From Erysipelotrichaceae bacterium (GTDB taxonomy: Bacteria; Bacillota_I; Bacilli_A; Erysipelotrichales; Erysipelotrichaceae), in assembly GCA_036677505.1 (NCBI GenBank), contig JAVBWK010000021.1, forward strand, positions 18,993-42,992: 24,000 nucleotides of DNA. The letters run 5' to 3'. Below, piece after piece: positions 2,015 to 22,668 of this stretch (the first letter of the stretch is position 1; each line of letters begins with the position of its first letter). The notes under the pieces are model-generated. The model saw only the letters and a list, made by a program, of their open reading frames with translations. It did not search any database and was not told the origin of the DNA. The position numbers and the translations under genes are program-made.

Positions 2015-2146
2015 AATTTCACCCTCACTACGCAACTTCTATTATACGAAAGTATCATCAATTCTGACAGAAGAAATTTGAACGTTCATGTCATATTTCT
2101 GCCATAATCCTTTGGGATAATAAAGATGCTTAAAGGAGGTGTGCAC

Positions 2147-2332: not shown

Positions 2333-2596
2333 ATGATGTACTTTAATCAAGGATTTGACGGGTTCAGCCGTTGGGGCGGATGTTTCAACCGCGGCTACTT
2401 CGGCTATTTCGGACCGTGGACCATGATGATCGGATGGGGCATTGCGATATTGATCGTTGCACTGATTGTCTGGGCTGTGTTGAAAAAGAAAAGAGAAAAT
2501 GACCCCATTTTACTCAGCTTAAAAGAAAAATTCGTTCGCGGCGAAATCACGGAAGATGAATATCTGAGCAAAAAGAGAACGTTGAATCTGAAATAA
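2333..2596 (+). CDS. Small membrane protein with a Gly/aromatic-rich N-terminus and a C-terminal SHOCT domain
   Basis: GGAGAG lies upstream of ATG 2333. One TM segment (IGWGIAILIVALIVWAVL) is followed by LKEKFVRGEITEDEYLSKKRTL (SHOCT). Its stop overlaps the next start (TAATG at 2594..2598). Confidence 0.75.
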   Translation: MMYFNQGFDGFSRWGGCFNRGYFGYFGPWTMMIGWGIAILIVALIVWAVLKKKRENDPILLSLKEKFVRGEITEDEYLSKKRTLNLK

Positions 2597-3222
2597 TGAG
2601 AAAACTTCTTGTTGCTCTGATTGTGACCGGGGTCCTGCTTTTAGGAGCAGGACTGACCGGCCTCTTTTTAACTGATGATGACCGTGAAATCCGCGAAGAA
2701 GATAAATATACTTTGGAAGAACTGACCGAAAACGTTGAGACATTGTTAGAAAACTATAGTGAACCGCTTAAAATATCGATGATCTACGTGTTTGAGGATC
2801 GTGATCCTTATTTCCTGATTACCGAAGTCGATACCGGTCGCGGAGCCATGGAGCTGCGCGCCAGCATCCGGACCGGCCAAATCTACCCCGACCGCTCCAT
2901 CGCGAGCATGTGGAACGTAAAATACATGCAACGCATGAGGAATCGTCGTATAATGGGAGCAGGAATGATGGGCGGCTATACCCGATATTATGATTTCGAC
3001 AATGAGTACACTCATGAAGAAGCCGTCGAAATCGCACAGAACTACGTTACTCTCAAGATGGACGGATATATCCTTGACTCAAACCACCATACCTTCTACG
3101 GCTACTATGTCTTTCATCTGTTGAAAGACAGTGAAATCGTCGGTATCCTGCGCGTCAATGCATATTCCGGACAAGCAGTATTCAGCCGTTTTAGCGGAAC
3201 TCTTGTTGAAATCAATAAATAA
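2596..3222 (+). CDS. Membrane-anchored extracytoplasmic protein with PepSY-like repeat(s) and a Met/Gly-rich loop
   Basis: It has an N-terminal anchor (LLVALIVTGVLLLGAGLTGLFL). The C-terminal segment EEAVEIAQNYVTLKMDGYILDS...YYVFHLLKDSEIVGILRVNAYSGQAVF fits the PepSY pattern. A Met-rich stretch, SMWNVKYMQRMRNRRIMGAGMMGG, lies at 2908..2970. Confidence 0.65.
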   Translation: MRKLLVALIVTGVLLLGAGLTGLFLTDDDREIREEDKYTLEELTENVETLLENYSEPLKISMIYVFEDRDPYFLITEVDTGRGAMELRASIRTGQIYPDRSIASMWNVKYMQRMRNRRIMGAGMMGGYTRYYDFDNEYTHEEAVEIAQNYVTLKMDGYILDSNHHTFYGYYVFHLLKDSEIVGILRVNAYSGQAVFSRFSGTLVEINK

Positions 3223-5380: not shown

Positions 5381-5401
5381 AAAAGGGCAATGCCCTTTTT
5401 A
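5381..5401. terminator. Short bidirectional hairpin terminator at the 3' end of the minus-strand operon
   Basis: AAAAAGGGCAATGCCCTTTTT has a GGGC/GCCC core flanked by A5 and T5, so it reads as hairpin plus U-run on either strand. It overlaps the amidohydrolase stop (5399..5401). Confidence 0.6.
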
Positions 5402-6658
5402 TACTCCATGAAATGCTTTATATTGCTCAACGGTCATCAGCGGTTTGAAATTGTCCTTGATGTTATTCAACACCTTGGGATCCGATAGCAGCTTTTCTAC
5501 TGCACCCAACGTGACCACCACCGGATATACTAACGCCTCCGTTGGATTGTCCATACAGAAATCCGCACCGTGCACCACGCCTTTACAACCAGAGAAACCA
5601 AACTGAACGGTCGGCACAAACAACGAGCAATCCCCAATGTCCCCCGCCGCAAACGATTTCTGATGGTTGACAATATTGTCTCCGACACATTCTGCCATCA
5701 GCGGACGCAAAACCTCACTCAACTCTTCGGACTGTTTGAGCGGGAAATATCCGGGTGTACTTTCAATTTCCACTTGCGCAAACAATGCTTTGGCACTGTG
5801 TGTGACCGTGTGATCGATCTTCTCACTGATCTGATTTAAGATATGGGTATCAATCGAACGGACATATCCCTCCAACACCGTCTTCGAAGGAACCGCATTG
5901 ACCGACTGACCGCCCAACGTACTCATCAGATGAACACGAATCAGATCCTCTTCCCTAAACGTTTCCCTCAACAATCCGATCGCAGTTTGAGCCAGAGCCA
6001 TCGCACTCAACGCATTGACTCCCAAATGAGGGGCCACTGCCGCATGCGAACTCTTACCGACAAACGTATACTTCTTATATACAAACCCGCTGAGCATCGA
6101 GTTGATCTCCATCTTCGGACGATCGGTCGCACCCATGGTATGACAGCTGATCAGCACATCGACATCACGGAATCGATCTTCAATGATCAGATTCTGCTTT
6201 CCGGAAAGTAATTTGATCTTGCCTTGATCGCGCAACTGCTTGCGTGCATCCAAATCCACAAATTCCTCCGCCGCAATGAAATAGCATGTAACCTTCCCTT
6301 GAGTGACGGTTTTTTTCGTAGCGAGGATTTTCATGACACCAGTCATGATCGCTGACTGTAAGTGATGACCGCACGCATGGGCTGCCCCATCTGACGCAGA
6401 TGCCATAAAGTGATGGGTCACGACCAGCGCATCCATCTCCGCAATCAGACCGATGTGCGGCTTTCCTTGTCCGATCGACACCGAAAAGCCGCTTAACCCA
6501 AAGTCCTCAATGTCAACATCTTCATTGTTAAAGAGATCGAGCAAATACGCTTTGGTCCGCTGCTCCTTAAACCCCAACTCCGGCATCGCAAACAAATCCT
6601 TCTCCCAAGCGATCAAATCAGACTGAAAGTCCGTAACGATCTTCATCCAATCCGACAT
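5399..6658 (-). CDS. M20-family metallo-amidohydrolase (AbgB/PM20D2-like subgroup)
   Basis: I chose the start at 6658 (MSDWMKIV...) because GGGAGGG lies upstream and it avoids a 120-nt overlap with the previous gene. Motifs are AAHACGHHLQSA (the HxCGH metal site of M20 amidohydrolases), IAAEE, and a dimerisation-domain-sized insert. Confidence 0.8.
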   Translation of the reverse strand: MSDWMKIVTDFQSDLIAWEKDLFAMPELGFKEQRTKAYLLDLFNNEDVDIEDFGLSGFSVSIGQGKPHIGLIAEMDALVVTHHFMASASDGAAHACGHHLQSAIMTGVMKILATKKTVTQGKVTCYFIAAEEFVDLDARKQLRDQGKIKLLSGKQNLIIEDRFRDVDVLISCHTMGATDRPKMEINSMLSGFVYKKYTFVGKSSHAAVAPHLGVNALSAMALAQTAIGLLRETFREEDLIRVHLMSTLGGQSVNAVPSKTVLEGYVRSIDTHILNQISEKIDHTVTHSAKALFAQVEIESTPGYFPLKQSEELSEVLRPLMAECVGDNIVNHQKSFAAGDIGDCSLFVPTVQFGFSGCKGVVHGADFCMDNPTEALVYPVVVTLGAVEKLLSDPKVLNNIKDNFKPLMTVEQYKAFHGV

Positions 6659-6659
6659 A

Positions 6660-7592
6660 TTATCCCTCCCTGTCCAGTATTCTCGCATTCTCAACGAACA
6701 CGTCGATAAACGCCTGCCGATCGACATCGACCAGCACTTTCGCATTGATTTTTCTTTTATCCGCCCAACTGCGCACATCGCCCACGGTTTTCCCGCGCGT
6801 CAGTTCCCCCTGCGTTTCCACATCTACAAACAATTCCACAGACGTGAAAAGATCAGGAGCCAACAGTTCTACGACCGGACACAAATCAAACAGCGGACTG
6901 CCCGGTTGTCCCAAATGTTTAGCATACTGCGAATAAAACTCCAACAGCTCATACGTCAGTCTGGACGCTTTGCCCTTGGTATTGAACCGATCGATCTCAG
7001 AGTGAAGAATCATCGCACGATGACACACTTCCAACCCACTCATCGTAATTTCTATACCTGAAGCAAACACGACCTTCGCCGCCTGCGGATCCACATAAAT
7101 ATTAAACTCTGCCTGCGAAGTGATATTCCCCGAATACAGCGAACCGCCCATCAGGGCAATTCGCTTTATTCTGTTTTTTATTGTTGGATACTTCATCAGA
7201 AGCATAGCCACATTGGTCAACGGACCGGTCGCAACGATCGTCACCTTATCTTGTTGAGCAGAGAGCGTCTGATACATCCACTCCACCGCATCCAACCCCG
7301 TCACCGAAAACTTCGATTCCGAAAGTATCGGACCGTCCATCCCGCTTTGCCCGTGAGCCACCGGCTGCACATATGTTTTGCCATCCAATGAACACGAAGC
7401 TCCGACGCTGACCTCAACTTTTCGATCAAGATACGAAAGAACCTTAAGCAGATTATCCGTCACTTTCTGAACCGTCTGATTTCCCGCCACCGTCGTACAT
7501 CCCAGCAGTTCAAACTGCTGCGGATGTGCTAACAGTGCACACAACGCAAAAATATCATCGTGCCCCGGATCACAGTCAAAAATGATTTTCAT
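6660..7592 (-). CDS. Inosine/uridine-preferring (IUNH-family) nucleoside hydrolase
   Basis: The start MKIIFDCDPGHDDIFAL contains the DxDxxxDD Ca2+/ribose-binding fingerprint (7554..7577), with AAAGGGGAG upstream. Length is about 310 aa. The TGPLTNVA motif is present. Confidence 0.88.
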   Translation of the reverse strand: MKIIFDCDPGHDDIFALCALLAHPQQFELLGCTTVAGNQTVQKVTDNLLKVLSYLDRKVEVSVGASCSLDGKTYVQPVAHGQSGMDGPILSESKFSVTGLDAVEWMYQTLSAQQDKVTIVATGPLTNVAMLLMKYPTIKNRIKRIALMGGSLYSGNITSQAEFNIYVDPQAAKVVFASGIEITMSGLEVCHRAMILHSEIDRFNTKGKASRLTYELLEFYSQYAKHLGQPGSPLFDLCPVVELLAPDLFTSVELFVDVETQGELTRGKTVGDVRSWADKRKINAKVLVDVDRQAFIDVFVENARILDREG

Positions 7593-7593
7593 C

Positions 7594-8517
7594 TTACTCC
7601 CCTTTGATCTTAGCGCGGCGATACTCAATGATCGAGTACGCTACGATACCGACAAACACCGCCACATACGGAATGGTCTGAATGATTTCGGATGGCAAAG
7701 CGAACAATTGCAAGGCATTGGAAAGTGCATCAAACATCCCAAACAGAAACGCCGTCATCGTCACCAGCCACACATTGCCCATACCCATCGCCTCCGCCGC
7801 CAAACCGATAAACCCGCGACCGGCCGTCATATTTTGGGTAAAGAACGAAAGATATCCCATCGACATATAGGCACCGCCCAACGCCGCCAGCAAACCGCTC
7901 AGCAACAACGCAATCGTCTTGATCTGCCTGACATTCACCCCAACGGACTCCGCCGCATGCGGATCTTTACCGACCGCCTTCATACGCAAGCCCAACGGCG
8001 TCTGATACATCAGCAGATACACCAAAATGACCGCCGCAAACATAATATACGCCAACACATTGTGACCCGAAAATATTCTTCCTAAAATCGGGATATTCTC
8101 CAATATCGGAATGTTGATTTTCGGAAGCGACCGCGCACTTAACGTTGCACTGGTCCCTTTGGAACCGGTGATGATAAACAACAGGAAAACCGTAAATGAA
8201 CTTGAAAATAAGTTGAGAGCAATCCCTCCCAAAATATTGTTCGTCTTCAATATCAACGTAAAATACGAAAGAATCGAAGCCATGATCATCCCTGCCAGAC
8301 ATGCTGCCAGCAAGCCGATCCACGCATTCTGCGTAAACGCACTGGTTACCGTACCGATAAACGCCGCCATCAGCATCATACCTTCAATCGCAATATTCGC
8401 AATGCCTGCACTATTGGCAATATACGCCGCCAACGCCGCAAACAATATCGGAACAACGACCCGGATGACCGTAAAGCCAAACTCCGGCGTCAGCATAATG
8501 TTCAATACATCAAGCAT
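7594..8517 (-). CDS. ABC transporter permease (BMP/CUT2 nucleoside-type importer, second permease)
   Basis: A 307-aa, highly hydrophobic polytopic protein. Its start overlaps the previous stop by 8 nt, with GGGAGG upstream. Its position and composition match NupQ/RbsC-like permeases. Confidence 0.85.
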   Translation of the reverse strand: MLDVLNIMLTPEFGFTVIRVVVPILFAALAAYIANSAGIANIAIEGMMLMAAFIGTVTSAFTQNAWIGLLAACLAGMIMASILSYFTLILKTNNILGGIALNLFSSSFTVFLLFIITGSKGTSATLSARSLPKINIPILENIPILGRIFSGHNVLAYIMFAAVILVYLLMYQTPLGLRMKAVGKDPHAAESVGVNVRQIKTIALLLSGLLAALGGAYMSMGYLSFFTQNMTAGRGFIGLAAEAMGMGNVWLVTMTAFLFGMFDALSNALQLFALPSEIIQTIPYVAVFVGIVAYSIIEYRRAKIKGE

Positions 8518-9565
8518 GTTGATCGCCTCCCTTCTTAATCAATGCACGTTCGTGATATTTTCTTAAGAAATACTGAGACGAAACAAACAGTACGACCACC
8601 GCTTCAACCACCGCCACGATTTCAACCGGAACATCGGTCGTACGCGCCATGATATCCGCTCCGGTACGCAAATAACTGATCGCAAAGGCCGCCGCAACGA
8701 CACCGACCGGATGATTACGTCCCAACATCGCCATCAGCGCTCCCGTAAACCCAAGGCCCGGCAGTGCCGACCATTGGAAACGATTGTACATGCCCAACAG
8801 TTCCACCGAAGAACCGACGCCTCCGATAAACCCGGAAATAAAGTGAACAACCAGAAACAGCCAGAAAGCATTCATCCCCGAATACTTCGCAAAATTCTTA
8901 TTCAACCCCGTCATCCGGATCGTATAGCCCAATTTGGTATGAAACAGCATCAGCTGTAACAAAACGACCGTAACGATCAGAATAATGATACCAAAGTGAA
9001 TACGGGTCGAAGGAATGATAACCGGCAGTTTTGCCGTTGCCTGAAACAAATGAGAAGCAACACCCGGCACATCCAACGCCTGCATGAAATTTTTAATGAT
9101 AAACAAGCCCAAACCAAACAAAATCGAATTCATCATCAGCGAAGTTACCAACTCATTGGTATTGTACTTCGCCTTAAAGAACCCCGGAATCAACGCTATC
9201 AAACCGCCGACCAAACCGGAAACCAAAATGGTCACAAACGGATGAATCAGCGAACTGCTCATCGTCTGGGTGGCCACTGCCGCCGTCACGACTCCGCAGA
9301 AATAGAAAATCCCCTCGGTACCCAAATTGAACAATTTTGTTCGAAATAACAGCGCCGTCGCCAAACCGGCAAAAGAGAGCGGAATCATCGTTTCAATGAC
9401 ATTGCCCATATAACGCACTTTGGTCAGCGGAGCAAACAACATTTTCGAAAAAGATTCCAACGGCTGAGCGCTGAAAACCAACAGCAAAATAAAGGTAAGA
9501 ACCAAGGCCAGCAAAACGGCTGCCGCCATTTTTACGACTTCGAAGATCCGCTCATTCGCTAACAT
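8510..9565 (-). CDS. ABC transporter permease (BMP/CUT2 nucleoside-type importer, first permease)
   Basis: A 351-aa polytopic membrane protein. Its start overlaps the ATPase stop by 7 nt, with AAGAGGG upstream. Confidence 0.85.
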   Translation of the reverse strand: MLANERIFEVVKMAAAVLLALVLTFILLLVFSAQPLESFSKMLFAPLTKVRYMGNVIETMIPLSFAGLATALLFRTKLFNLGTEGIFYFCGVVTAAVATQTMSSSLIHPFVTILVSGLVGGLIALIPGFFKAKYNTNELVTSLMMNSILFGLGLFIIKNFMQALDVPGVASHLFQATAKLPVIIPSTRIHFGIIILIVTVVLLQLMLFHTKLGYTIRMTGLNKNFAKYSGMNAFWLFLVVHFISGFIGGVGSSVELLGMYNRFQWSALPGLGFTGALMAMLGRNHPVGVVAAAFAISYLRTGADIMARTTDVPVEIVAVVEAVVVLFVSSQYFLRKYHERALIKKGGDQHA

Positions 9566-11118
9566 AAACTGGCCCTCTTTAAACTTTCCTCATCCTGACG
9601 TTTGACGCCAAGCATGTATAACCCCAATTCCATCTCATCGACATCTTTGGTACGATCGAAATGCGCCACGATTTCACCTTCATACATGACGATCAGCCGA
9701 TCGCTGACCTCCATGACCTCATTCAAATCCGCACTAACCAGCAAGATGGCCACATTGCGATTGCGCATGTCAATGAGCTGCTTATGAATAAATTCGGCAC
9801 TGCCGATATCGATACCCCGCGTCGGCTGCTCGGCAATCATGACCTTGGGATCGGTATTGGTCTCACGGGCAACGACCACTTTCTGAATGTTGCCTCCGGA
9901 AAGACTCTCGATTTTTGACTTGTAATTCTTTGTGCGGACACTGAACATTGAGATAAGCTGTGAAGCTACTTTTCCGATAGCCTTATCATTCATAAAAATC
10001 GGACCATTGATTTCCTTACGCCGATAATAACTGGAAATCAGATTCTCCGCTACGGTCGCCCCCTGCGCCACACCTTCCTTCATGCGGTCCTCCGGAATAT
10101 AAGCCAATCCGGCAATGCGCTTCTGATCGACAGAAAGTGAAGTAATATCCTGATCAAGGATAGACCACTTCCCACTGTTGATACCGGACAAACCGACCAA
10201 TCCCTGAACCAGTTCTGACTGGCCATTGCCCTGAACCCCGGCTACACCCAGGATTTCACCCTCGCGAATCGCAAAACTGATATCTTTTAAAATCGGAATA
10301 CCCTTTTTCGTCAGATTCAAACCTTCCACTTTGAAAGCTACCTCGTCGCGATCCGATTCCACTTTAAAATCATCATACGACAGAGAAACTTTACGCCCGA
10401 CAATGAGTTCCGTCATTTGTTCGATCGTAATTTCTTCATTGTTAAATGTCCCGCGACTCTCCCCATTTTGCATGATCGTGATCCGGTCGCTGATCGCCTT
10501 GACCTCATTGAGCTTATGGGAGATGAAGAGAATCGTGTGTCCCATATTTTTAAAGTGTTTCAGATTTTCGAAAAGAGCCTCGGTTTCCTGAGGAGTCAAT
10601 ACAGCGGTCGGCTCATCGAGAATGATGACCTCCGCATCGCGATACAGCGTTTTCAGTATTTCGACCTTTTGCTTGGCACTGACCGTCAAACGCGAGACAC
10701 GCTGTGTCACATCCATATCAAAATTATATTTCTTAGCCAGATTTTTCGTGACGTTGACCGCTTCATTTTTATTAAGAAAGAAACGCTTCTGCCTGGGCTC
10801 CATACCTAAAACGATATTCTCTGCCACCGAAAAATCATCGATCAGCATAAAATGCTGATGAACCATTCCGACCCCATTCAAAATGGCCTCCATGGAATTA
10901 TGAAACTGTGTCGGCTTTCCCCGATAAGTAATCGTTCCCGAAGAAGCATGTTCAATGCCGAAAATGATCTTCATCAGCGTTGACTTCCCTGCGCCGTTTT
11001 CCCCGACAATGGAATGAATTTCGCCTTTACGGAAATCAACACTGACATTGCGATTTGCCACGACACCGTTGGAATAAATTTTTGTGATATCCTTTAAATC
11101 AAGTATGATCTCACTCAT
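9559..11118 (-). CDS. ABC transporter ATP-binding protein with duplicated ATPase domains (CUT2 family)
   Basis: I prefer the start MSEIILDLKDITKIY at 11118. The N-terminal half has Walker A GENGAGKST, signature LSVSAKQKVEI and Walker B VIILDEPT. The C-terminal half has the degenerate GVQGNGQSE, LSGGNIQKV and MIAEQPTRGID, typical of sugar/nucleoside CUT2 ATPases. Confidence 0.9.
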   Translation of the reverse strand: MSEIILDLKDITKIYSNGVVANRNVSVDFRKGEIHSIVGENGAGKSTLMKIIFGIEHASSGTITYRGKPTQFHNSMEAILNGVGMVHQHFMLIDDFSVAENIVLGMEPRQKRFFLNKNEAVNVTKNLAKKYNFDMDVTQRVSRLTVSAKQKVEILKTLYRDAEVIILDEPTAVLTPQETEALFENLKHFKNMGHTILFISHKLNEVKAISDRITIMQNGESRGTFNNEEITIEQMTELIVGRKVSLSYDDFKVESDRDEVAFKVEGLNLTKKGIPILKDISFAIREGEILGVAGVQGNGQSELVQGLVGLSGINSGKWSILDQDITSLSVDQKRIAGLAYIPEDRMKEGVAQGATVAENLISSYYRRKEINGPIFMNDKAIGKVASQLISMFSVRTKNYKSKIESLSGGNIQKVVVARETNTDPKVMIAEQPTRGIDIGSAEFIHKQLIDMRNRNVAILLVSADLNEVMEVSDRLIVMYEGEIVAHFDRTKDVDEMELGLYMLGVKRQDEESLKRASLC

Positions 11119-11135
11119 AAAAACCCTTTCTATAA

Positions 11136-11169
11136 ACGAATGCCCTACACGTCTGTGTAGAGCATTCGT
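11136..11169 (-). promoter_or_regulatory. Intercistronic stem-loop between the binding-protein and ATPase genes
   Basis: A 15-bp stem with one mismatch (11136..11150 pairs with 11155..11169) closes a 4-nt loop. No clear U-tract follows on the minus strand; TTTATAGAAAGGG leads straight into the ATPase RBS. Confidence 0.6.
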
Positions 11170-11189
11170 AAAATTCATGTGATTTCTTC

Positions 11190-12269
11190 TTACGGTTGAA
11201 CGGAAGCTTTAATGGCGTTCCACTCGTCCGCCGTCAGAGTCAATGCGCTCTTAACAACGATTTCGCCGCTGATAACTTTGGCTTCATAAGAAGCAACGAC
11301 ATCACGGATAGCTGCCGGCAATGCATTGTAAACATCGTTCTTCGCCAATCCGACACCGTTTTCCTTGATACCTAAGATTTCAAGTTGTCCATACGGAAGG
11401 GTTCCGGCCAAGTGACGTTGAACGGCTTGCAGAATTGCCAAGTCAACATTCTTTGTACCTGAAGTCAGAATCTTCTCATATTTTGCCTGATCGTTTTTAA
11501 ACAGCAACGCCTGGTCAGCATCAACGCCCAACGCATAACGGTTAGCTTCAACCGCTGCATCAAACAAACCATTGCCCGTACCGCCGGCTGCATGGAAGAT
11601 AATGTCTGCGCCACCGGCATATTGGTTCAACGCAATTTCTTTACCCTTTGCAGGATCGCCGAAGTTATTGGCATATGCGATGAAAATCTTAACATCCGGA
11701 TTGACAGCCTGTGCACCTTGGATATATCCATACAAGAAGTCATTGATACCGGCAAATTCCATACCGCCGATGGCACCGATGATGTTATTGGTCGGATCGG
11801 AATACGGAAGTTCAGTCTTTGTGACCAAACCGGCAACCAAACCGGTCAGATAGCCCAGTTCATTGGCTTTATAGAACATGCCATAGGTATTCGGGTTTGA
11901 CGGAGGTGTATCCCAGTCAAAGTTGATAAACTTTTTGTCCGGGAATTGAGCGATGACTTTTTCAAATGTCGGGGAAGCTTCCCAGTTACCGCCGATGATG
12001 ATGTCATAATCGCCTTCAGCTGCATCTAAATAATAGTTTTCCCACTTGGATTGGTCACGACCCATTTCGATAATGGTCGTTTCGGCATCTTCGATTTCAG
12101 CTTCAATCAAAGCCATGCCATTGGCAGTTACATCAAAGTAGGATTGGTCGCCACGGAAAGGCACCAACAACGCCACTTTTACGCCTTCTTTTTCTTCTTC
12201 AGGAGCGGCACAGCCGACAAACCCGAAAACGATGAACAAGGCCAATAAAACCTTCAATAAATTCTTCAT
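11190..12269 (-). CDS. BMP-family (PnrA/Med/TmpC-like) ABC substrate-binding lipoprotein
   Basis: The signal peptide has a lipobox, LFIVFGFVG-C (Cys20 at 12210..12212). The body (VALLVP..GDQSY.D, GGNWE, FHAAGGTGNG, ALGVDADQ) matches basic-membrane-protein nucleoside-binding proteins. The start overlaps the upstream stop (ATGA), with GAGGAGGAAA upstream. Confidence 0.88.
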   Translation of the reverse strand: MKNLLKVLLALFIVFGFVGCAAPEEEKEGVKVALLVPFRGDQSYFDVTANGMALIEAEIEDAETTIIEMGRDQSKWENYYLDAAEGDYDIIIGGNWEASPTFEKVIAQFPDKKFINFDWDTPPSNPNTYGMFYKANELGYLTGLVAGLVTKTELPYSDPTNNIIGAIGGMEFAGINDFLYGYIQGAQAVNPDVKIFIAYANNFGDPAKGKEIALNQYAGGADIIFHAAGGTGNGLFDAAVEANRYALGVDADQALLFKNDQAKYEKILTSGTKNVDLAILQAVQRHLAGTLPYGQLEILGIKENGVGLAKNDVYNALPAAIRDVVASYEAKVISGEIVVKSALTLTADEWNAIKASVQP

Positions 12270-14377
12270 GTTTCCTCCTCGTTTATATTAAAATCAGCTC
12301 TGCTGATTCTAATCCCGGTAACAGATATCCCATGCTTACTGCCACTGATAAACCCTAAACAACCACAAACCGATATATCCTCAATGAATATTTTACTCAC
12401 AGTTTCTCCACTAACTTTGAATATAATTATAGGGGATACACCAGTAATGTGCAATGAAATTTGAGATGATTTCACATGTGAAATTTGTACTTTTGCAAGA
12501 TTCTGGAATATTTTGTTGATTCTCTGATTTATATGAAATTCATCCTCATTTATACGAGCGATTTCCACATATTTTTGAGCTCCTTGAACACCAAAACAGA
12601 CGGAACTGCCCGGTTGCCACTGTTTCGTTTCAATCTCGGCATCGACACCTTTCCATCGGACATCCCCAAAAAGCAACATCGCATTCTCATCTGATACACA
12701 AGTAATTCCTCCATCAACAACCCAATCGCCATTGACATGCGTGCAGCCGGCAATCTCACGATGATGTCCCATCATAAAAGTCACTCCGAAATCTTCGATG
12801 GGCAGCTTTGTGACATCCCAACAGAAGTCTGCATTGCCCGAAATCAAAATCGAATCGATCCACACATGTGTCAGAAATGTCCGATGAAGACTGGTCAATT
12901 CAACGCCCACTTCGACAATCAGTGAAAAATCACTGGGAATTTTCAATTCAAAGCTCTCAAAATTCTGGGTCAGTATGAATGCTTGCGATCGCGCCGTTTT
13001 GCCATTGATATCACGGACCAACAGACATGCTTCAAACTGCTCCTCTGTTCCTGCTTTGAGTCGTGTCTGTATCGTCTGTCCCGGCCATACAACAGGTGCC
13101 AGCGACGGTTCATAACGTCCGTCATGCAGTTCACTCGCCCTGAAATAGGTTTTCTTAATGACTTCAACTTTAGAATTTGAATAAGCTCCGTGAACATTGA
13201 TCTGTAAAGCTCTCTGACTTAACGCATCTTCCATGACTGCATTAACTATGGTTCCATGGAAGTATGGATGCCATCGTCCATAAAATCCATGCGTTGAGTA
13301 TGGCAGGCTGAAACTGAAATCATTGGGATGATTTAACCGTTCGTCGGTGAGCAACGGGTTGATTTTATTGGTCAATCGACCGAAGTACAGGGTTTGTTGC
13401 GTGGCATCAAGCATATTGATGCTCCCGAACAATCCCGAAGATAAAACCACATCATTGATCTTATTCACCCAAGGGACATATAAGCCGTCAATCCCTACCA
13501 AAGCTCCCATGATCGAACCAACATTGCCGACATTGCAATCCGTATCATACCCTGCATTGACACAAATCAACAAGGTATCTCTGAAATTGCCCTTGCCATG
13601 AACCATGGCCATCACCATGACCGCCATATTCGGAATGATCGGACATATACCGCCATAACAGGCATACGGAAAACTGTCCTGAATAAAGCGCAATGTATCT
13701 TCCCAGTCGTTCGACTGAGATGCATATGCGATGACTTCGCGTGCCACACGGACATATTCACTGGCCGGATCACAATAAGTCAGCGCTTTTTCGAGTACCT
13801 CAGTTATATTTTTATGTGTAAACGCCAGACTGATCGCAGCACTGACAAATGCGGCTCCCTCAACGGCCTCACCATCATGCGAGACCGAAGCTGCTTTTCT
13901 GGCCAGATCGACTGCCAATGCCACATCTTCATACGCTACATACGCCCAACCGTCACTGAAAATCTGCCCGCCGATCTGCTCGGAAAGTTCTTTGCCGTTG
14001 GTATGGTGACTGCCGCTTTCCGGCGCAGTCATCCCCATCTTTAAGTTATGATACATCGTATGTTCAGTCGAAACACCGACTCCGCCCCACCAGAAAAAAC
14101 CGTGCTCCTGCGCAATCACATTGAGCATGGTATCGGCCATGTCCTGAGCCGTAACTTCGCTTGCTTGTTTATCCAATAAAACCCGCGTAAAGTATAGCGG
14201 ACCGTTGGTATCATCATCGGCCCCAAACACCGAATAATCCACCACAAAATCCTCGATTTTACCGAAGGATTCCTTGATGTTCTGTGATGACCAGTTTTCA
14301 ACCGGAGCTCCCAATCGTACACCGATCACCTTTCCAAGCCAAGCGGCACGGATATCTTCCAACCAATTCGACATCAA
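12266..14377 (-). CDS. ADP-ribosylglycohydrolase-family domain (residues ~1-335) fused to a ~350-aa beta-rich C-terminal region (LamG/DUF1080-like jelly-roll suspected)
   Basis: ARH hallmarks are GKVIGVRLGAPVENW, the metal ligands GADDDTNGP (D54-T57), and NAGYDTDCNVGNVGSIMGALVG (D278/D280). The C-terminal half has alternating beta-strand patterns and a HVNGDWVVDGGITC...LLFGD..WKGVDAEIE signature. The start overlaps the esterase stop (ATGA). Confidence 0.8.
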   Translation of the reverse strand: MMSNWLEDIRAAWLGKVIGVRLGAPVENWSSQNIKESFGKIEDFVVDYSVFGADDDTNGPLYFTRVLLDKQASEVTAQDMADTMLNVIAQEHGFFWWGGVGVSTEHTMYHNLKMGMTAPESGSHHTNGKELSEQIGGQIFSDGWAYVAYEDVALAVDLARKAASVSHDGEAVEGAAFVSAAISLAFTHKNITEVLEKALTYCDPASEYVRVAREVIAYASQSNDWEDTLRFIQDSFPYACYGGICPIIPNMAVMVMAMVHGKGNFRDTLLICVNAGYDTDCNVGNVGSIMGALVGIDGLYVPWVNKINDVVLSSGLFGSINMLDATQQTLYFGRLTNKINPLLTDERLNHPNDFSFSLPYSTHGFYGRWHPYFHGTIVNAVMEDALSQRALQINVHGAYSNSKVEVIKKTYFRASELHDGRYEPSLAPVVWPGQTIQTRLKAGTEEQFEACLLVRDINGKTARSQAFILTQNFESFELKIPSDFSLIVEVGVELTSLHRTFLTHVWIDSILISGNADFCWDVTKLPIEDFGVTFMMGHHREIAGCTHVNGDWVVDGGITCVSDENAMLLFGDVRWKGVDAEIETKQWQPGSSVCFGVQGAQKYVEIARINEDEFHINQRINKIFQNLAKVQISHVKSSQISLHITGVSPIIIFKVSGETVSKIFIEDISVCGCLGFISGSKHGISVTGIRISRADFNINEEET

Positions 14378-15258
14378 CGGACTCCAAACACGAAATCAGC
14401 AATATCCTTGGTTCGCTCATCATCGAAAAACACCATTTCCGCATGATTGGCATCATCAATATAACCCAGATCCACAACACATCCGGCATCCGTCAATGCT
14501 TTCGCAAAATCCCGCGTCTGATGCCACGGAACCATGGAGTCTGACTTTCCATGTCTGAGGAAAAACGGAAACTCCGTTTTCTTGATATGATTTTGCGGAG
14601 AAAGCAACTTCGCTTTGTCGATGTTATCTTTAAAAGGTCCCCCGATCAGCCAACTGGCCAGCGAATCATCCTCCGTCATCGGCCAGAAATTATCATACCC
14701 CAACTGTTCCGTCTGATCATCCATCGTCAGAAAGTCGTACACGCCATAATAACCGATGACCCCTGCCAGAGATACTTTCGCAGATCCATATCCCAGTGAT
14801 TTATCCTCAAACTCACCGCTTTGCATAGTCAATGCGGTTAGAGCGACCAAATGGGCACCCGCAGACTCACCCCACAGAAATATTTTTTTTGTATCGATCG
14901 GAAAATGCTCGGGATTGACACTCAAATAGCGGATCGCCGTCTTGATATCAAATAACTGCTGAGGAAACGGTTTCTCTAACGCCAAGGTGTAACTGACACA
15001 TGCAACCGCGATGCCGTGACTGATCGGATGAGTCATCCACTCAACAAACTTCGAACGGTGATGACCGCTGATCCACCCGCCGCCATGCACGGCAATGATC
15101 AGCGGAAAAGGACCTTCGCCTTCAGGTAAATACAAATCCAGTGTCTTGGTCCCCTTTTCCATATAACATACATCTAAATGTTTGCGCTCGAATGCATCCA
15201 AATGGATTTCTCCTAAGTCAAACGTCAGAAAATCTTTCACTTTTTGCGTAATTTCCAT
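14374..15258 (-). CDS. Alpha/beta-hydrolase esterase (hormone-sensitive-lipase/Aes-like family)
   Basis: The oxyanion motif is AVHGGGW and the nucleophile elbow is GESAGAH (Ser132 at 14863..14865). The distal acid and His lie in GKSDSMVP...DDANHAE. AAGGAG sits 6 nt before the ATG, and only 12 nt separate it from the activase stop. Confidence 0.85.
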   Translation of the reverse strand: MEITQKVKDFLTFDLGEIHLDAFERKHLDVCYMEKGTKTLDLYLPEGEGPFPLIIAVHGGGWISGHHRSKFVEWMTHPISHGIAVACVSYTLALEKPFPQQLFDIKTAIRYLSVNPEHFPIDTKKIFLWGESAGAHLVALTALTMQSGEFEDKSLGYGSAKVSLAGVIGYYGVYDFLTMDDQTEQLGYDNFWPMTEDDSLASWLIGGPFKDNIDKAKLLSPQNHIKKTEFPFFLRHGKSDSMVPWHQTRDFAKALTDAGCVVDLGYIDDANHAEMVFFDDERTKDIADFVFGVR

Positions 15259-15270
15259 ACGAATCTCCTT

Positions 15271-16110
15271 TTATACGCTGACGACTTCGCCAGCCCCCAA
15301 ACTCAAAGCATAGCGCTTATATTCCTCAAAGGTATCGATATCCAACGAAGCACTTCCCAAAATATCCAGTCCCTCTTGCCTTACACCGTACGGACGGTAA
15401 CGGATCAGCTTGATCCGCGCCCGATCTTTAACGATGTTGACAACATCCGCAATCGTTTTGCGGTTTTGTTCATCAAACCGCGGCAGACAGACGATCCGCA
15501 CTTCCGTCAGTTTTCCGATAGAAAGTAAATATGCCAGATTGTCGAGAACCGCCTCATACTCATGGCCGGTAAGTTCTTTATGAAATCTTGGATCGGTCGC
15601 TTTGACATCCAACATGACCCCATCACATACGCTCATCAGCTCAGGGTATTGAACAAACCGTGCAAACCCGTTGGAATCAATCAGCGTCGACATTCCCATC
15701 GCTTTCACCTTCTCAAACAACTCTCTGAGAAACTCCGGGTGCATCATGCATTCACCGCCGCTGACCGTAATCCCTCGCACAAAAGCCGATACTTCTTTCA
15801 GTTTCTCGATGACATCATCACTCGACATCGTATTGATTTTCGGACTGGCCAGATGCGGACACACCTTGATACACGTATCGCACTGCTCGCAAACCGTTTC
15901 ATCCCAAACCACTTTTCCGTCTTTCAACGACAATGCTTTTGACGGACAGGTAGGCACGCAGATACCGCAATGGATACACATATTAATCGTCTCCGGATTA
16001 TGGCAATACCAGCATCGGAAAGGACAGGACTGCAAAAAGATGGCCATCCGGTTTCCGGGGCCATCTACGTTAGAGAAAGGAATGATTCTGTTGACCGGAG
16101 CAAACAGCAT
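15271..16110 (-). CDS. yjjW: Glycyl-radical enzyme activating enzyme (radical SAM, YjjW-type)
   Basis: It carries DGPGNR (the activase motif) and CPFRCWYC, a CX3CX2C motif at 16003..16026. Two ferredoxin-like motifs, CIHCGICVPTCP and CEQCDTCIKVCP, lie at 15856..15978, and SGGEC is a SAM-binding motif. The start codon shares one base with the upstream stop (TAATG at 16108..16112). Confidence 0.88.
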   Translation of the reverse strand: MLFAPVNRIIPFSNVDGPGNRMAIFLQSCPFRCWYCHNPETINMCIHCGICVPTCPSKALSLKDGKVVWDETVCEQCDTCIKVCPHLASPKINTMSSDDVIEKLKEVSAFVRGITVSGGECMMHPEFLRELFEKVKAMGMSTLIDSNGFARFVQYPELMSVCDGVMLDVKATDPRFHKELTGHEYEAVLDNLAYLLSIGKLTEVRIVCLPRFDEQNRKTIADVVNIVKDRARIKLIRYRPYGVRQEGLDILGSASLDIDTFEEYKRYALSLGAGEVVSV

Positions 16111-17606
16111 TATTGGGTGACCTTGCGATCGAGGGCTTTCGCCAAATCACGCGATCCCTGACCCAATACGGTCGCACCGTTTAAGACGGCTTCTTTGCGA
16201 TCCAGTTTTTCCAGTTCACTGCGCTTGACCAGATAACCGGTGACGCGCACGACATCATTGTTTTCACAGTAAGCCGAGAAATAGCGCATACCGGCATTCA
16301 TTGCTCCCTTGATGATATCCAACAGCGATTCCGGTGTATTCTTCCACGTTTCTTCAAACCGGAAAATATCACCGATGCCTGTGGGGAAATATTTGTGGAA
16401 GCGGCCGGAATGAGCGATCTGCTTATGGATTTCCGGTTCACTGCCGATCGGAATACGGGCTCCCGGCGATGAATCCAAACCATCTCTTTCAATGCCGACC
16501 TGGGCATGCAGCCAGTAACGGTCACTGCTGTTTTCACTGTATGGCGCTTTATGTAAAGATACCAAATGATCCAGATGAGCAATGATCTCTTCGCCCAAAT
16601 CATCGGCAGATGTATTGTTTCCATATCCTTTTTTCTTATCTTCGATGCCTAACAGCGTATTGACACACTCGGCCAAACCAACCAGGCCAAACATACCGAC
16701 AAAGTTCTCCTGTTTGATAAATCCTTCTTTGACTAAGAAATTACTCTTAAAGAATGCGGCATCTTCAACCATAAAACGGATGCGCAAATCCATAAACTCG
16801 GTCATCAGATCGACATACTTCGGTAACAGTACATTTTTGAAATGTTCAATCGATTGAGCTTCTTTGGCGATGTTTGCCAAGCGCAGACGCGGCAGGGTAT
16901 ATCCGCCTCCGGCAATGCGCAAACCGTTATAGCAGCTGGCCAATCCGTAATTCTTTTCGCCAAACTCAGCCGAGAACATTTTATGATTGGCAAAGCTTGG
17001 TTTCGCCGTAGAAAGCATAACCTGGGCACATAGAGTAGCGAACTCATCGCCGGTCAGTTGGGGATCATAGCGGACGGTCATGTTGGGAACTGCGGTTTGT
17101 AAACGGAGGGTTTCTTTTAAGATGATCCGACCGGCCTTCGTATCTTTCGGACCGATGTCCGCATGGACAAAGGAATCGCACAAAACACGATCGATATGCA
17201 ACAAGAATAAGCCGATCGCCTTAGTGGCTTCCTTTTCATCGACGATAAAAGGTTCAAGCAGTTCGTCCAGATTTCCTAAAAATACCGGAAAGGACGATAC
17301 GGAGGGAACGTGGCGATACATGATCATCAAAGCGTTGGTCGCTTCCCATATATCCGTCGGCGGGTCCAACTGTAAAAATTTACTGCCGTTTTTCATCAAG
17401 ACGGAATAATCTGGTAGGATATACCTAGGACGGAAAGGCAGTGCGCCTTCAAACAAATCACAAATCATTCCGGCTTCTTTAGCCTTGATAAACTCCGGAT
17501 TATACGGCAGAGTCGTATCGGTATTTTCGCCCAGTTTAGCCAGATTGATAAATTGCTGATGAAATGACAGAGTTGTATCGGTTACGATTTCATACGCTGT
17601 AGACAT
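16110..17606 (-). CDS. yjjI: YjjI-family (DUF3029) glycyl-radical enzyme, function unknown
   Basis: A 498-aa soluble protein translationally coupled to the activase. It has a C-terminal glycyl-radical fingerprint, VVRVTGYLV (R454-Y458 at 16233..16247), about 40 residues from the end. Its size matches the ~500-aa YjjI family rather than ~800-aa PFL-type GREs. GGAGGG lies upstream of the ATG. Confidence 0.75.
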   Translation of the reverse strand: MSTAYEIVTDTTLSFHQQFINLAKLGENTDTTLPYNPEFIKAKEAGMICDLFEGALPFRPRYILPDYSVLMKNGSKFLQLDPPTDIWEATNALMIMYRHVPSVSSFPVFLGNLDELLEPFIVDEKEATKAIGLFLLHIDRVLCDSFVHADIGPKDTKAGRIILKETLRLQTAVPNMTVRYDPQLTGDEFATLCAQVMLSTAKPSFANHKMFSAEFGEKNYGLASCYNGLRIAGGGYTLPRLRLANIAKEAQSIEHFKNVLLPKYVDLMTEFMDLRIRFMVEDAAFFKSNFLVKEGFIKQENFVGMFGLVGLAECVNTLLGIEDKKKGYGNNTSADDLGEEIIAHLDHLVSLHKAPYSENSSDRYWLHAQVGIERDGLDSSPGARIPIGSEPEIHKQIAHSGRFHKYFPTGIGDIFRFEETWKNTPESLLDIIKGAMNAGMRYFSAYCENNDVVRVTGYLVKRSELEKLDRKEAVLNGATVLGQGSRDLAKALDRKVTQ

Positions 17607-17715: not shown

Positions 17716-19329
17716 ATGGAACAAAAACCCAATATTTTAATCATAACGACCGATCAGCAGCGCTTTGATGCCATCGGTGCCGTCGATCCGTTGATATTTT
17801 CTCCGAATCTTGACCAACTGGCTAAAGAAGGTGCGCTTTACCGACATACGTACACCCCCAATCCGGTGTGTGTGCCGGCCAGGCAGAACATTCTGACCGG
17901 ACTGACCGCACGTCATCACGGATTTGATGACAACGACTTTGCCCGACACCGTTATTCCCCTTATTATTTACCGAAACTGCCTCAGATTCTTTCGGATGCC
18001 GGATATGATACAATTGCCATCGGAAAACTTCATTTTGAGCCAAATCGCAGACACGACGGATTCCATCGCTACTTTATGATCGATGAGGTTCCGCGTCACC
18101 GCGAAGAAGATGATTATGCCTTATATTTGAAAGACAACGGCTATGAGCACATTTCTGCGCTACACGGTGTCCGCGATCCGCTGTATATGATGCCTCAGCG
18201 ATCGGTGGTGGATAAGAAACATCACTGTTCGACCTGGGTGGCAGATCTGACGATCGAACAGCTGAAAATCAACCGCGGGAAACGACCGTTTTTCTTCTGG
18301 GCCGGATTTGTTCACCCGCATCCGCCGATGGATGTCAGTGAAGAGTTTGCGGATATATATAAGGATAAGCAGCTTCCCGAGCCGGTCAAATCAAAGACTT
18401 CGGTCAGTTGGCTTGCACAGGAAAACCGGAATATCGTCGATTATCCCAATGAGGATGTGTTCCGCAGGTTCAGGGAACTGTATTTTGCTTCGATCGCGCA
18501 GGTAGATGAGCAAATCGGACGGATCATCGGTACTCTGAAGGAATTGAATCTCTACGATCAGACCTGTATCATTTTCTGCTCGGATCACGGAGAAATGCTT
18601 GGTGATATGGATACATTCCAAAAATTCTTACCTTATGACGGTTCTTCCCGAGTGCCCTTTATCATCCGCTATCCCGAGAAAATCAAACCCGGCACGACGG
18701 TGGATGCATTGATTAATCTCAATGACATCATGCCGACTTTACTTGATCTTGCAAGTGTTGAGTACCCGGCACCTTTTGAGTTGGCCGGTAAATCCGTTTT
18801 TGATTTGAATGAGCGAGAAGAAACCTTTATTGAACACGGCCGTTATGCACGGCGCTGGATAAGCATAGTCACTCAGACACATAAATATGCTTATTACTAT
18901 GGCGGCGGTCGCGAAGAACTGTTTGATTTGATCCGTGATCCCAAAGAACAGGTCAATCTGATTGAAGCGAATGCTTCCCGTGTTGAACATATTAGGACGT
19001 TATTACGTATAAAGTGCATCGATTGGGAATGCCGCTTCGGATTGGAAGATCATATTGAAAATCATGAGTTCAAACGGTTTGAGATTCCTGAGCTTCGTCC
19101 CTTTGGCGGTACCGGTGAACTGATATTCCCAAAACGGATCATGGACCCCATCGAGAAAAGCAAGATTCAGCCTCTAAGAGAGCAAATCGTCAATGTCGTA
19201 AAGGATGAGCCGGTAATACGTTTGAAAGATATCGATTTCTCCTACATGCTAAAGACACATCAGCTTACCGAAGAAGATGTCGCATGGATCATAGAACAAG
19301 ATAATCTGAACAAAGAAAGGATCGGATAA
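17716..19329 (+). CDS. Cys-type sulfatase (formylglycine-dependent), no signal peptide
   Basis: N-terminal NILIITTDQQRFD, and the formylglycine (FGly) motif C-V-P-A-R followed by QNILTG (17869..17883). GKLHF and CSDHGEMLGD are sulfatase metal and active-site motifs. The N-terminus MEQKPNILII is not a signal sequence. Confidence 0.88.
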   Translation: MEQKPNILIITTDQQRFDAIGAVDPLIFSPNLDQLAKEGALYRHTYTPNPVCVPARQNILTGLTARHHGFDDNDFARHRYSPYYLPKLPQILSDAGYDTIAIGKLHFEPNRRHDGFHRYFMIDEVPRHREEDDYALYLKDNGYEHISALHGVRDPLYMMPQRSVVDKKHHCSTWVADLTIEQLKINRGKRPFFFWAGFVHPHPPMDVSEEFADIYKDKQLPEPVKSKTSVSWLAQENRNIVDYPNEDVFRRFRELYFASIAQVDEQIGRIIGTLKELNLYDQTCIIFCSDHGEMLGDMDTFQKFLPYDGSSRVPFIIRYPEKIKPGTTVDALINLNDIMPTLLDLASVEYPAPFELAGKSVFDLNEREETFIEHGRYARRWISIVTQTHKYAYYYGGGREELFDLIRDPKEQVNLIEANASRVEHIRTLLRIKCIDWECRFGLEDHIENHEFKRFEIPELRPFGGTGELIFPKRIMDPIEKSKIQPLREQIVNVVKDEPVIRLKDIDFSYMLKTHQLTEEDVAWIIEQDNLNKERIG

Positions 19330-22508: not shown

Positions 22509-22583
22509 TGTTTTAACGCTCCTTCTGAAATACTTTTAAGAGTTGAGTTTTATAAAATCACTTAATATACATTCATTAACGTG

Positions 22584-22611
22584 ATTATATCATGTATGCT
22601 TTTCATATCAA
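22584..22611 (-). promoter_or_regulatory. Candidate sigma-A promoter for the GH5 gene (extended -10)
   Basis: On the minus strand: TTGATA (22611..22606), a 16-nt spacer, then TGaTATAAT (-10 at 22589..22584). It sits about 75 nt upstream of the ATG. Confidence 0.5.
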
Positions 22612-22668
22612 CCCGTTGCTTTGAATCCCAATATAAAAACGATTATCCCTTGAAAGATCTTGACCTTA

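Follow-up and report, generated by a model that had tools for sequence, protein, structure and literature searches.

An ADP-Ribosylglycohydrolase-Fold Protein with Two Lectin-Like Modules in a Nucleoside-Type Transporter Operon of an Erysipelotrichaceae Bacterium: A Candidate Riboside Hydrolase

The Locus

The stretch of DNA analysed here (the window) comprises 24,000 nucleotides from an Erysipelotrichaceae bacterium (GenBank assembly GCA_036677505.1, contig JAVBWK010000021.1, positions 18,993 to 42,992 of the forward strand). It contains a minus-strand operon of ten genes, one of which encodes a protein with an ADP-ribosylglycohydrolase (ARH) fold fused to two β-sandwiches related to carbohydrate-binding modules (CBMs). 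This protein, hereafter ARH-CBM, and the family to which it belongs are the subject of the present work. The genes of the operon, in the order in which they are read, preceded by a sulfatase gene, are the following:

17716..19329, plus strand: cytoplasmic Cys-type sulfatase, transcribed divergently from the operon
16110..17606, minus strand: YjjI glycyl-radical enzyme, at the head of the operon
15271..16110, minus strand: YjjW activase, after YjjI at the operon head
14374..15258, minus strand: BD-FAE/HSL-type esterase (PF20434, E 6e-51), directly upstream of the ARH-CBM gene
12266..14377, minus strand: ARH-CBM fusion gene, open and intact, 703 amino acids counted from the TTG at 14377
11190..12269, minus strand: Bmp/PnrA-type lipoprotein substrate-binding protein (PF02608)
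9559..11178, minus strand: ABC ATPase (Pfam assignment)
8510..9565 and 7594..8517, minus strand: two ABC permeases (Pfam assignment)
6660..7628, minus strand: IU-type (RihA/RihC-like) ribonucleoside hydrolase (PF01156, E 5e-86)
5399..6778, minus strand: M20 amidohydrolase, the final gene of the operon

The codon that follows the TTG of the ARH-CBM gene is an ATG (14374), which would give a product of 702 amino acids and which overlaps the stop of the upstream esterase gene as TGATG. Taking into account that the eight nearest homologues are, every one, 702 amino acids long, this ATG is probably the real start. Residues are numbered here from the TTG, as they were in a first-pass annotation of this DNA; the motifs that it named are found at the residues it gave, but the numbers may be one too high if the ATG is the start. 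At its other end, the ARH-CBM gene overlaps the start of the Bmp gene as ATGA (12266..12269), and a GAGGAGG ribosome-binding site sits within the last ARH-CBM codons. The gene is translationally coupled both to the upstream esterase gene and to the Bmp gene.

TmpC/PnrA and BmpD, which bind nucleosides, are the nearest solved relatives of the Bmp protein of the window. The IU nucleoside hydrolase scores 312 bits against the NCBIfam RihA model, under its 433-bit cut-off. No Rfam family reached threshold over the whole window, which leaves no riboswitch or other RNA to hint at the ligand. The ARH-CBM protein is predicted to be cytoplasmic since it has no N-terminal hydrophobic segment (maximum Kyte-Doolittle(11) value 1.15, versus 3.1 for the neighbouring Bmp lipoprotein), in agreement with the first-pass annotation, which had found no signal peptide.

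Outside the operon, two open reading frames (ORFs) of the window, at 431..2035 (minus strand, 534 amino acids) and 2596..3222 (plus strand, 208 amino acids), are without Pfam match at E ≤ 0.001. On another contig of the same genome (C12), a degenerate ARH paralogue (21644-22615) lies less than 10 kb from both a PfkB kinase (24531-25367) and a bona fide ribokinase (31283-32152, 338 bits).

The ARH Catalytic Domain and Its Metal Site

The N-terminal half of the protein carries the following features:

13358..14377, minus strand: ARH catalytic domain, residues 1-340
14297..14299, minus strand: Glu27, equivalent of the catalytic/metal-binding ARH Glu, in G23-A-P-V-E27, which aligns to GMPTE of MJ1187
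14207..14218, minus strand: metal motif 1, D54-D55-D56-T57, canonically T-D-D-T, here with Asp at the first position (checked by translation)
13535..13546, minus strand: metal motif 2, D278-T279-D280-C281, canonically D-x-D-S/T, here ending in Cys (checked by translation)

The ARH family PF03747, whose cut-off is 26.2 bits, scores 169.5 bits (E 1.6e-49) on residues 11-299, with model positions 1-284 of 287 covered. Together with the translation, which contains the motifs DDDT (54-57) and YDTDC (277-281), this bears out the domain as it had been first annotated. An AlphaFold2 model of the whole protein, built on a 53-sequence alignment, reaches a pLDDT of 92.8 and a pTM of 0.94; its first 340 residues or so form helices only and residues 373 to 692 β-strands only, in two sandwiches, as the first-pass annotation had expected of two β-rich modules. 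The high pTM suggests that the three parts of the protein are arranged in a fixed manner. In Foldseek searches, the N-terminal domain matches MJ1187, ARH3 and DraG at a probability of 1.00, with target-normalised TM-scores of 0.7-0.79 and 14-18% identity. No solved homologue of the whole chain was found, PDB matches being confined to the ARH part, and NCBIfam contains no curated family for the whole protein.

In an alignment with MJ1187 and four ARH paralogues of the same genome, the metal ligands align and the canonical GxPxE motif maps to G23-A-P-V-E27. Across 53 sequences, which span 32-93% identity, no exchange occurs at E27, D54, D55, D56, D278, D280 or C281. The ligands had been described as intact in the first-pass annotation, and this holds for the acidic ones; it does not hold for the two canonical hydroxyl ligands, since Thr is exchanged for Asp54 and Ser/Thr for Cys281, both of them invariant and both potential metal ligands. 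The canonical GNGxxMR loop reads GGQIFSD. In the ARH paralogue on contig C12 the metal ligands are missing, GGQNQV standing where GGDxDS/T would be expected.

Because both the acidic ligands and the replacement residues are invariant, the metal site of ARH-CBM looks functional, though non-canonical, and its metal preference or its substrate contacts would not be the same as in ARH3 and DraG. Taking into account that 101 of the 340 positions of this domain are at least 90% conserved, catalysis is almost certainly located here.

The C-Terminal Modules

Two β-sandwiches follow the catalytic domain:

12818..13315, minus strand: middle β-sandwich, resembling galactose-binding-domain-like CBMs, residues ~355-520
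13079..13123, minus strand: D419-x-R421-Y422-x-P424...P428...P432-G433, in the middle module, the most conserved C-terminal stretch
12293..12817, minus strand: last β-sandwich, DUF1080/CBM66-type concanavalin-like jelly roll, residues ~521-695

A Pfam search with residues 350-703 of the window protein gave no match, PF06439 (DUF1080) not being reached at E ≤ 0.1, and the window sequence alone gives no match to PF21253 either. Among 53 homologues, PF06439 is reached by nine (best 1.1e-5) and PF21253 by five (best 4.7e-5). Seventy-eight family members contributed their C-terminal halves to a profile (profile A2) that matches, over its last 145 positions, the CBM66 of Bacillus subtilis levanase (4b1l, 4azz, 4b1m) with an E-value of 2.3e-7. 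Over positions 92-181 it matches CBMs in 2c26 (E 2.6e-5) and 1wky (E 2.2e-4). When residues 344-703 were modelled on their own (pLDDT 92.9), Foldseek superposed them on CBM66 with a TM-score of 0.71 and an rmsd of 4.2 Å over 157 columns; further matches are galectins, two CBM22 modules in tandem and, in galactocerebrosidase, the sandwich together with the lectin domain. Judging from these profiles and models, the last module is probably a member of the DUF1080/CBM66 superfamily, and the middle one is similar to galactose-binding-like CBMs. The first-pass annotation had likened the last module to LamG/DUF1080 jelly rolls; the GDWVVDGG...FGD...WKG stretch on which it leaned is present, and the guess appears right at the superfamily level. 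What the region matches are jelly rolls of the lectin/CBM type (CBM66, DUF1080, galectins, galactose-binding-domain-like CBMs) and not an unrelated enzyme.

When profile A2 was compared with 1.84 billion representative proteins, ARH fusions of about 700 amino acids, many fragments and giant proteins were retrieved. Two of these giants, P0121 (3465 amino acids) and P0127 (3027 amino acids), which were scanned against Pfam, contain 13 and 11 tandem DUF1080/PF06439 domains, respectively, and the C-terminal end of P0127 is a DUF1302 domain. PF21708, the GALC lectin domain, co-matches the DUF1080 repeats.

The modules are far more variable than the domain to which they are attached. The median identity of homologues to the window protein falls from 46% in the ARH domain to 25% in the middle module and 16% in the last, and the positions that are at least 90% conserved number 14 of 166 in the middle module and 5 of 175, mostly Gly, in the last. 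Within the clade of the window protein, a single position of the last module is that conserved. Since they are so poorly conserved in comparison with the ARH domain, the lectin-like modules look like recognition or scaffolding parts, of which the D419-G433 segment is a candidate interface with the active site. The scarcity of conserved positions in the last module argues against an active site shared with the 3-keto-glycoside hydrolases.

Distribution and Phylogeny of the Family

The same architecture of about 700 amino acids is found in at least 596 species-representative genomes, and 2537 proteins of similar length match at E ≤ 0.001 among the candidates examined. Homologue lengths cluster at 650-740 amino acids, and thousands of metagenome proteins have the same length. 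A frameshift or fusion artefact, which the first-pass annotation had considered, is thus ruled out. The hosts are mostly Lachnospiraceae, Oscillospiraceae, Erysipelotrichaceae and Paenibacillaceae, with a few Spirochaetota, Thermotogota and Chloroflexota.

A maximum-likelihood tree separates two clades with 99% support each. Clade A (15 sequences, nearly all from Erysipelotrichaceae) includes the window protein; 14 of its 15 members lie beside a Bmp importer, mostly with a nucleoside hydrolase too. Clade B (65 sequences) is associated with ribokinase and CUT1 importers. The catalytic domains of both clades are nearly identical: only positions 146, 258, 292 and 326 discriminate between them and none of these four is a ligand, which offers no active-site difference that could account for different substrates in the two clades. 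Locus L054, from a metagenome-assembled genome of Eubacteriales, contains two tandem, very divergent ARH-CBM copies (~9990-12040 and ~12100-14222) with long branches in the tree.

Gene Neighbourhoods across the Family

The neighbourhoods of 87 loci and of the window were compared by calling and clustering ORFs, and recurrent neighbours were named by Pfam and NCBIfam. Apart from YjjI/YjjW, the following counts are of loci, out of 84, that have the gene no further than 7 kb from ARH-CBM:

CUT1 sugar ABC importer: 40/84 loci
Ribokinase, including LacI-ribokinase fusions: 30/84 loci
IU nucleoside hydrolase: 18/84 loci
Bmp-type ABC importer: 17/84 loci
Sulfatase: 10/84 loci
YjjI/YjjW: 4/88 loci (window, L001, L002 and L044; tblastn and ORF clustering)

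By its profile matches, the neighbouring kinase is genuinely a ribokinase. A representative scores 362.6 bits against the ribokinase equivalog TIGR02152 (cut-off 299.65), which at E ≤ 1e-60 matches 28 of 34 neighbouring kinases; the sole other model matching them at this threshold, NF008353 (24 of 34), also describes ribokinase. The typical operon has the order RbsK-SBP-permease-permease-ARH-CBM-PfkB(-short ARH), SBP being the substrate-binding protein. In clade B, the PDB matches of this protein are binders of chitin-oligosaccharides and xylo-oligosaccharides, and it can be classed as oligosaccharide-type.

In clade A, locus L010 (7022-17684) reads RbsK-M20-esterase-ARH-CBM-Bmp-ABC-permeases-IUNH, IUNH being the IU nucleoside hydrolase. 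The whole operon of the window, with YjjI/YjjW and the sulfatase, is kept around homologues at 72% and 49% identity. The locus of a homologue at 35% identity has a sulfatase, an anSME-like radical SAM enzyme, the esterase, ARH-CBM, the Bmp ABC importer, the IU nucleoside hydrolase and the M20 enzyme, without YjjI. The co-occurrence with YjjI that the first-pass annotation had asked about is real in a small sub-clade and does not extend to the rest of the family. It has to be noted that YjjI-YjjW head the operon of the window in the place held by ribokinase in L010, and it might be speculated that YjjI, an NrdD-like glycyl-radical enzyme, may act on a ribose-derived product.

Beside the fusion gene, many clade B operons encode a further PfkB kinase of divergent sequence, together with a single-domain ARH of the canonical type (~335-385 amino acids; examples of the kinase and short-ARH genes are L027:12233-14174, L086:8805-9962, L083:8829-9983 and L029:94-1089). 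These genes may correspond to a pathway where phosphorylation of the riboside precedes its hydrolysis.

Sulfatases of the cytoplasmic type occur in both clades (L056:12153-15245, L061, L070, L071, L080, L081, L038 and the window, 17716..19329), and in Paenibacillus violae two sulfatase genes lie directly downstream of a family member. Their recurrence beside family members suggests that some substrates are sulfated; there is no obvious sulfated nutrient containing ribose. A different setting is found in Caldanaerobius polysaccharolyticus (L005:5835-13826), where the family member lies between GH172 and GH20 genes, with two GFO/IDH/MocA oxidoreductases, an AP_endonuc_2 protein, ROK kinases and NagA/NagB-like genes nearby. 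Such surroundings, of an amino-sugar kind or of one for the oxidative cleavage of glycosides, differ from those of the loci with ribokinase.

Comparison with Known Systems

The best match for the catalytic domain, in sequence and in fold, is MJ1187 of Methanocaldococcus jannaschii (PDB 1T5J), an ARH protein of unknown function (family-profile E 1e-11; Foldseek TM-score 0.77 on the target). The Glu and the D-T-D motif are common to both; however, MJ1187 is a single-domain protein of about 300 residues with Ser in the place of Cys281 and without lectin modules. ARH3 (ADPRS) and DraG share the fold and the binuclear acidic ligands, and the chemistry of ARH-CBM at the ribose C1'' is presumably the same as theirs. 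The substrates of these enzymes are ADP-ribosylated Ser, poly(ADP-ribose), O-acetyl-ADP-ribose (OAADPr) and Arg-ADP-ribosylated dinitrogenase reductase. Both are single-domain proteins, whereas ARH-CBM, 14-18% identical to them, has Asp54 and Cys281, the altered GNGxxMR loop and a catabolic context.

With regard to the last module, the closest known counterparts, by profile and by fold, are the CBM66 of the B. subtilis levanase SacC and the DUF1080/PF06439 family; this CBM66 is extracellular, belongs to a GH32 enzyme and has the ends of fructans as its ligand, whereas the module of ARH-CBM would be cytoplasmic, is fused to an ARH domain and is very divergent. Galactocerebrosidase (GH59), in which a catalytic domain is followed by a β-sandwich and then by a lectin domain, is the top Foldseek match of the C-terminal pair (E 4e-8). 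However, its catalytic domain is an unrelated TIM barrel and the superposition has an rmsd of 15 Å, so that the analogy is one of layout only.

At the level of gene organisation, the family resembles the ribose utilisation (rus) loci of Bacteroidetes, where one or more ribokinases are grouped with an importer, a nucleoside hydrolase and a variable set of enzymes that liberate ribose. Among the rus enzymes, Glowacki et al. list ADP-ribosylglycohydrolases, which they neither characterised nor described as CBM fusions (10.1101/574913). Whereas the rus systems are Gram-negative and SusC/D-based, those of ARH-CBM are ABC-importer operons of Bacillota; in the window, importer, ARH-CBM and IU nucleoside hydrolase stand together, with the ribokinase elsewhere in the genome. 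The yegTUV genes of Escherichia coli combine the ARH-like YegU, the PfkB kinase YegV and a nucleoside-type transporter, and the short ARH and second PfkB of clade B are similar, although YegU is a single-domain protein. PMC10819704 still gives the function of YegU as unknown.

Proposed Function and Rival Explanations

It is proposed, with a probability of about 0.6, that ARH-CBM hydrolyses an imported riboside in a metal-dependent manner, setting ribose free, and is not a protein de-ADP-ribosylase. Thus, a small ribose-containing molecule would enter the cell through the co-transcribed Bmp-type ABC importer, and the cytoplasmic ARH-fold glycohydrolase would cleave the C1 bond of its ribofuranosyl unit by means of Glu27 and a binuclear metal site formed by D54/D55/D56 and D278/D280/C281. 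The two lectin-like sandwiches, as rigidly packed accessory modules, would enlarge the substrate pocket or form a lid over it, and would bind whatever in the substrate is not ribose. The IU nucleoside hydrolase would take the base off the nucleoside moiety; the esterase, the M20 amidohydrolase and the sulfatase would strip decorations; and the freed ribose would be phosphorylated by the ribokinase encoded on contig C12. The domain architecture, the conservation, the fold, the breadth of the family and the gene neighbourhoods are observed here; that the glycone is ribose, what the C-terminal modules do and which step follows which are inferred.

The catabolic, ribose-freeing role is favoured because ribokinase, importers and ribonucleoside hydrolase are steady companions of the family, and because the enzyme appears to be cytoplasmic and is co-translated with a nucleoside-type importer. 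This signature is that of a catabolic enzyme, not of a regulator or immunity protein acting on macromolecules, and the family-wide presence of ribokinase, sugar/nucleoside ABC importers and IU nucleoside hydrolase lends strong support to the idea of a small-molecule ribosyl hydrolase put forward in the first-pass annotation. In clade A, the presence of esterase, M20 amidohydrolase and sulfatase points to a decorated ribosyl-nucleoside as substrate; in clade B, the oligosaccharide-type binding proteins point to ribosyl-glycosides.

Several points weigh against this proposal. To our knowledge, all characterised ARHs act on ADP-ribose conjugates, and a plain riboside would be new chemistry for the fold. 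In the literature, no paper was found that describes or assays an ARH-CBM fusion, no enzyme of the family is known to have been assayed, and nothing was found that characterises the function of YjjI, a ribofuranosidase or YegU. The esterase, the M20 enzyme, the sulfatase and YjjI are unexplained by a simple riboside; the operon of the window has no ribokinase gene of its own; and 20 of the 84 loci are without any of the five tallied classes of context genes. Finally, the Asp54 and Cys281 substitutions might mean a different metal or a different reaction.

The rival that keeps closest to the known α-ribosyl chemistry of the fold supposes that the substrate is still a metabolite derived from ADP-ribose, whose α-ribosyl bond would be cleaved as by ARH3. 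O-acetyl-ADP-ribose, α-NAD, ADP-ribose-1''-phosphate and 2'-O-α-ribosyl-adenosine, the nucleoside core of poly(ADP-ribose), would be candidates, with the esterase removing the acetyl group and the nucleoside hydrolase finishing the adenosine. The full acidic ligand set, the place of ARH3 among the best structural matches, and the nucleoside-type binding protein, nucleoside hydrolase and esterase of the operon agree with this idea. However, such substrates are rare as nutrients, Bmp/PnrA transporters are known to import nucleosides and not nucleotides, most family members accompany oligosaccharide-type CUT1 importers and the GNGxxMR loop is altered to GGQIFSD, and we regard this explanation as unlikely. 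A still less probable, minor rival arises because some members of DUF1080 are hydrolases: the last module could be a second, or even the real, catalytic domain of the 3-keto-glycoside hydrolase type, or the substrate could be another furanoside (fructo- or arabinofuranosides), with the ARH domain binding or processing another part of it. PF06439 contains characterised hydrolases, and the 3-ketotrehalose hydrolase BT2157 belongs to it (PMC9007349). The Caldanaerobius homologue, set amid GFO/IDH/MocA oxidoreductases, AP_endonuc_2, GH172 and GH20, would suit such a function, and so would the binding of fructofuranose termini by CBM66. Against it stand the low conservation of this module, the lowest in the protein and down to a single position at 90% or more in the clade of the window, the failure of the window sequence itself to reach PF06439 detection, the non-catalytic nature of its best solved match, CBM66, and the identity of the recurrent kinase, which is ribokinase and no other sugar kinase.

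Membership of the ARH superfamily would also allow a macromolecular de-ADP-ribosylase like DraG, ARH1/3 or Tri1, serving the regulation of an operon enzyme or immunity to an ADP-ribosylating toxin, and local matches to DraG and Tri1 do exist. These equivalog matches are weak (29.1 bits against a cut-off of 337 for DraG, TIGR02662, and 21.9 against 490 for Tri1, NF041672) and cover only about 55 residues around metal motif 2, and no ADP-ribosyltransferase is found among the Pfam assignments of the 19 ORFs scanned in the window. With a catabolic neighbourhood throughout the family and a gene placed inside a translationally coupled transporter operon, such a role is very improbable. A function in anti-phage defence was likewise rejected, as no PADLOC defence-system model is matched. 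The exchange of two canonical hydroxyl ligands could, lastly, be taken as a sign of a catalytically dead binding or structural protein, like crystallin J1 and ARH2. However, Asp54 and Cys281 are invariant and potential metal ligands, the strong conservation of the ARH domain (101/340 positions) extends across families of Bacillota and beyond, and the truly degenerate paralogue on contig C12 shows what real ligand loss looks like (GGQNQV for GGDxDS/T); we give this last explanation hardly any credence.

Implications

Returning to the riboside hydrolase, a wider proposal can be put forward tentatively, its parts being rather doubtful when taken all together. ARH-CBM would represent a new glycoside-hydrolase-like family on the ARH fold, with an Asp/Cys-modified binuclear site; it would free ribose from ordinary ribofuranosides and not from ADP-ribose; it would be the enzyme, missing so far, with which Gram-positive gut bacteria liberate ribose; the Erysipelotrichaceae clade of the window would handle a decorated (acylated and/or sulfated) ribosyl-nucleoside; and the ribosyl product or the aglycone would be the substrate of YjjI, which stands where L010 has ribokinase. 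What is new in the family is its architecture, its modified metal site and its proposed physiological role; the fold is known, and the chemistry is probably related to known chemistry. The window itself contributes a distinct Erysipelotrichaceae clade with a nucleoside-type importer and a nucleoside hydrolase, and, in a sub-clade, the link to YjjI.

ARH enzymes are seen as erasers of ADP-ribosylation; if the proposed function is true, the fold extends to nutrient scavenging. The family, which numbers hundreds to thousands of proteins in Bacillota of gut and soil and is linked to ribokinase and to importers of sugars or nucleosides, would offer a concrete candidate for the harvest of ribose by Firmicutes from RNA-derived or glycosidic sources. 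In the clade of the window, where ARH-CBM is encoded in the same operon as the orphan enzyme YjjI, knowing the substrate of the former would narrow the search for the reaction of the latter.

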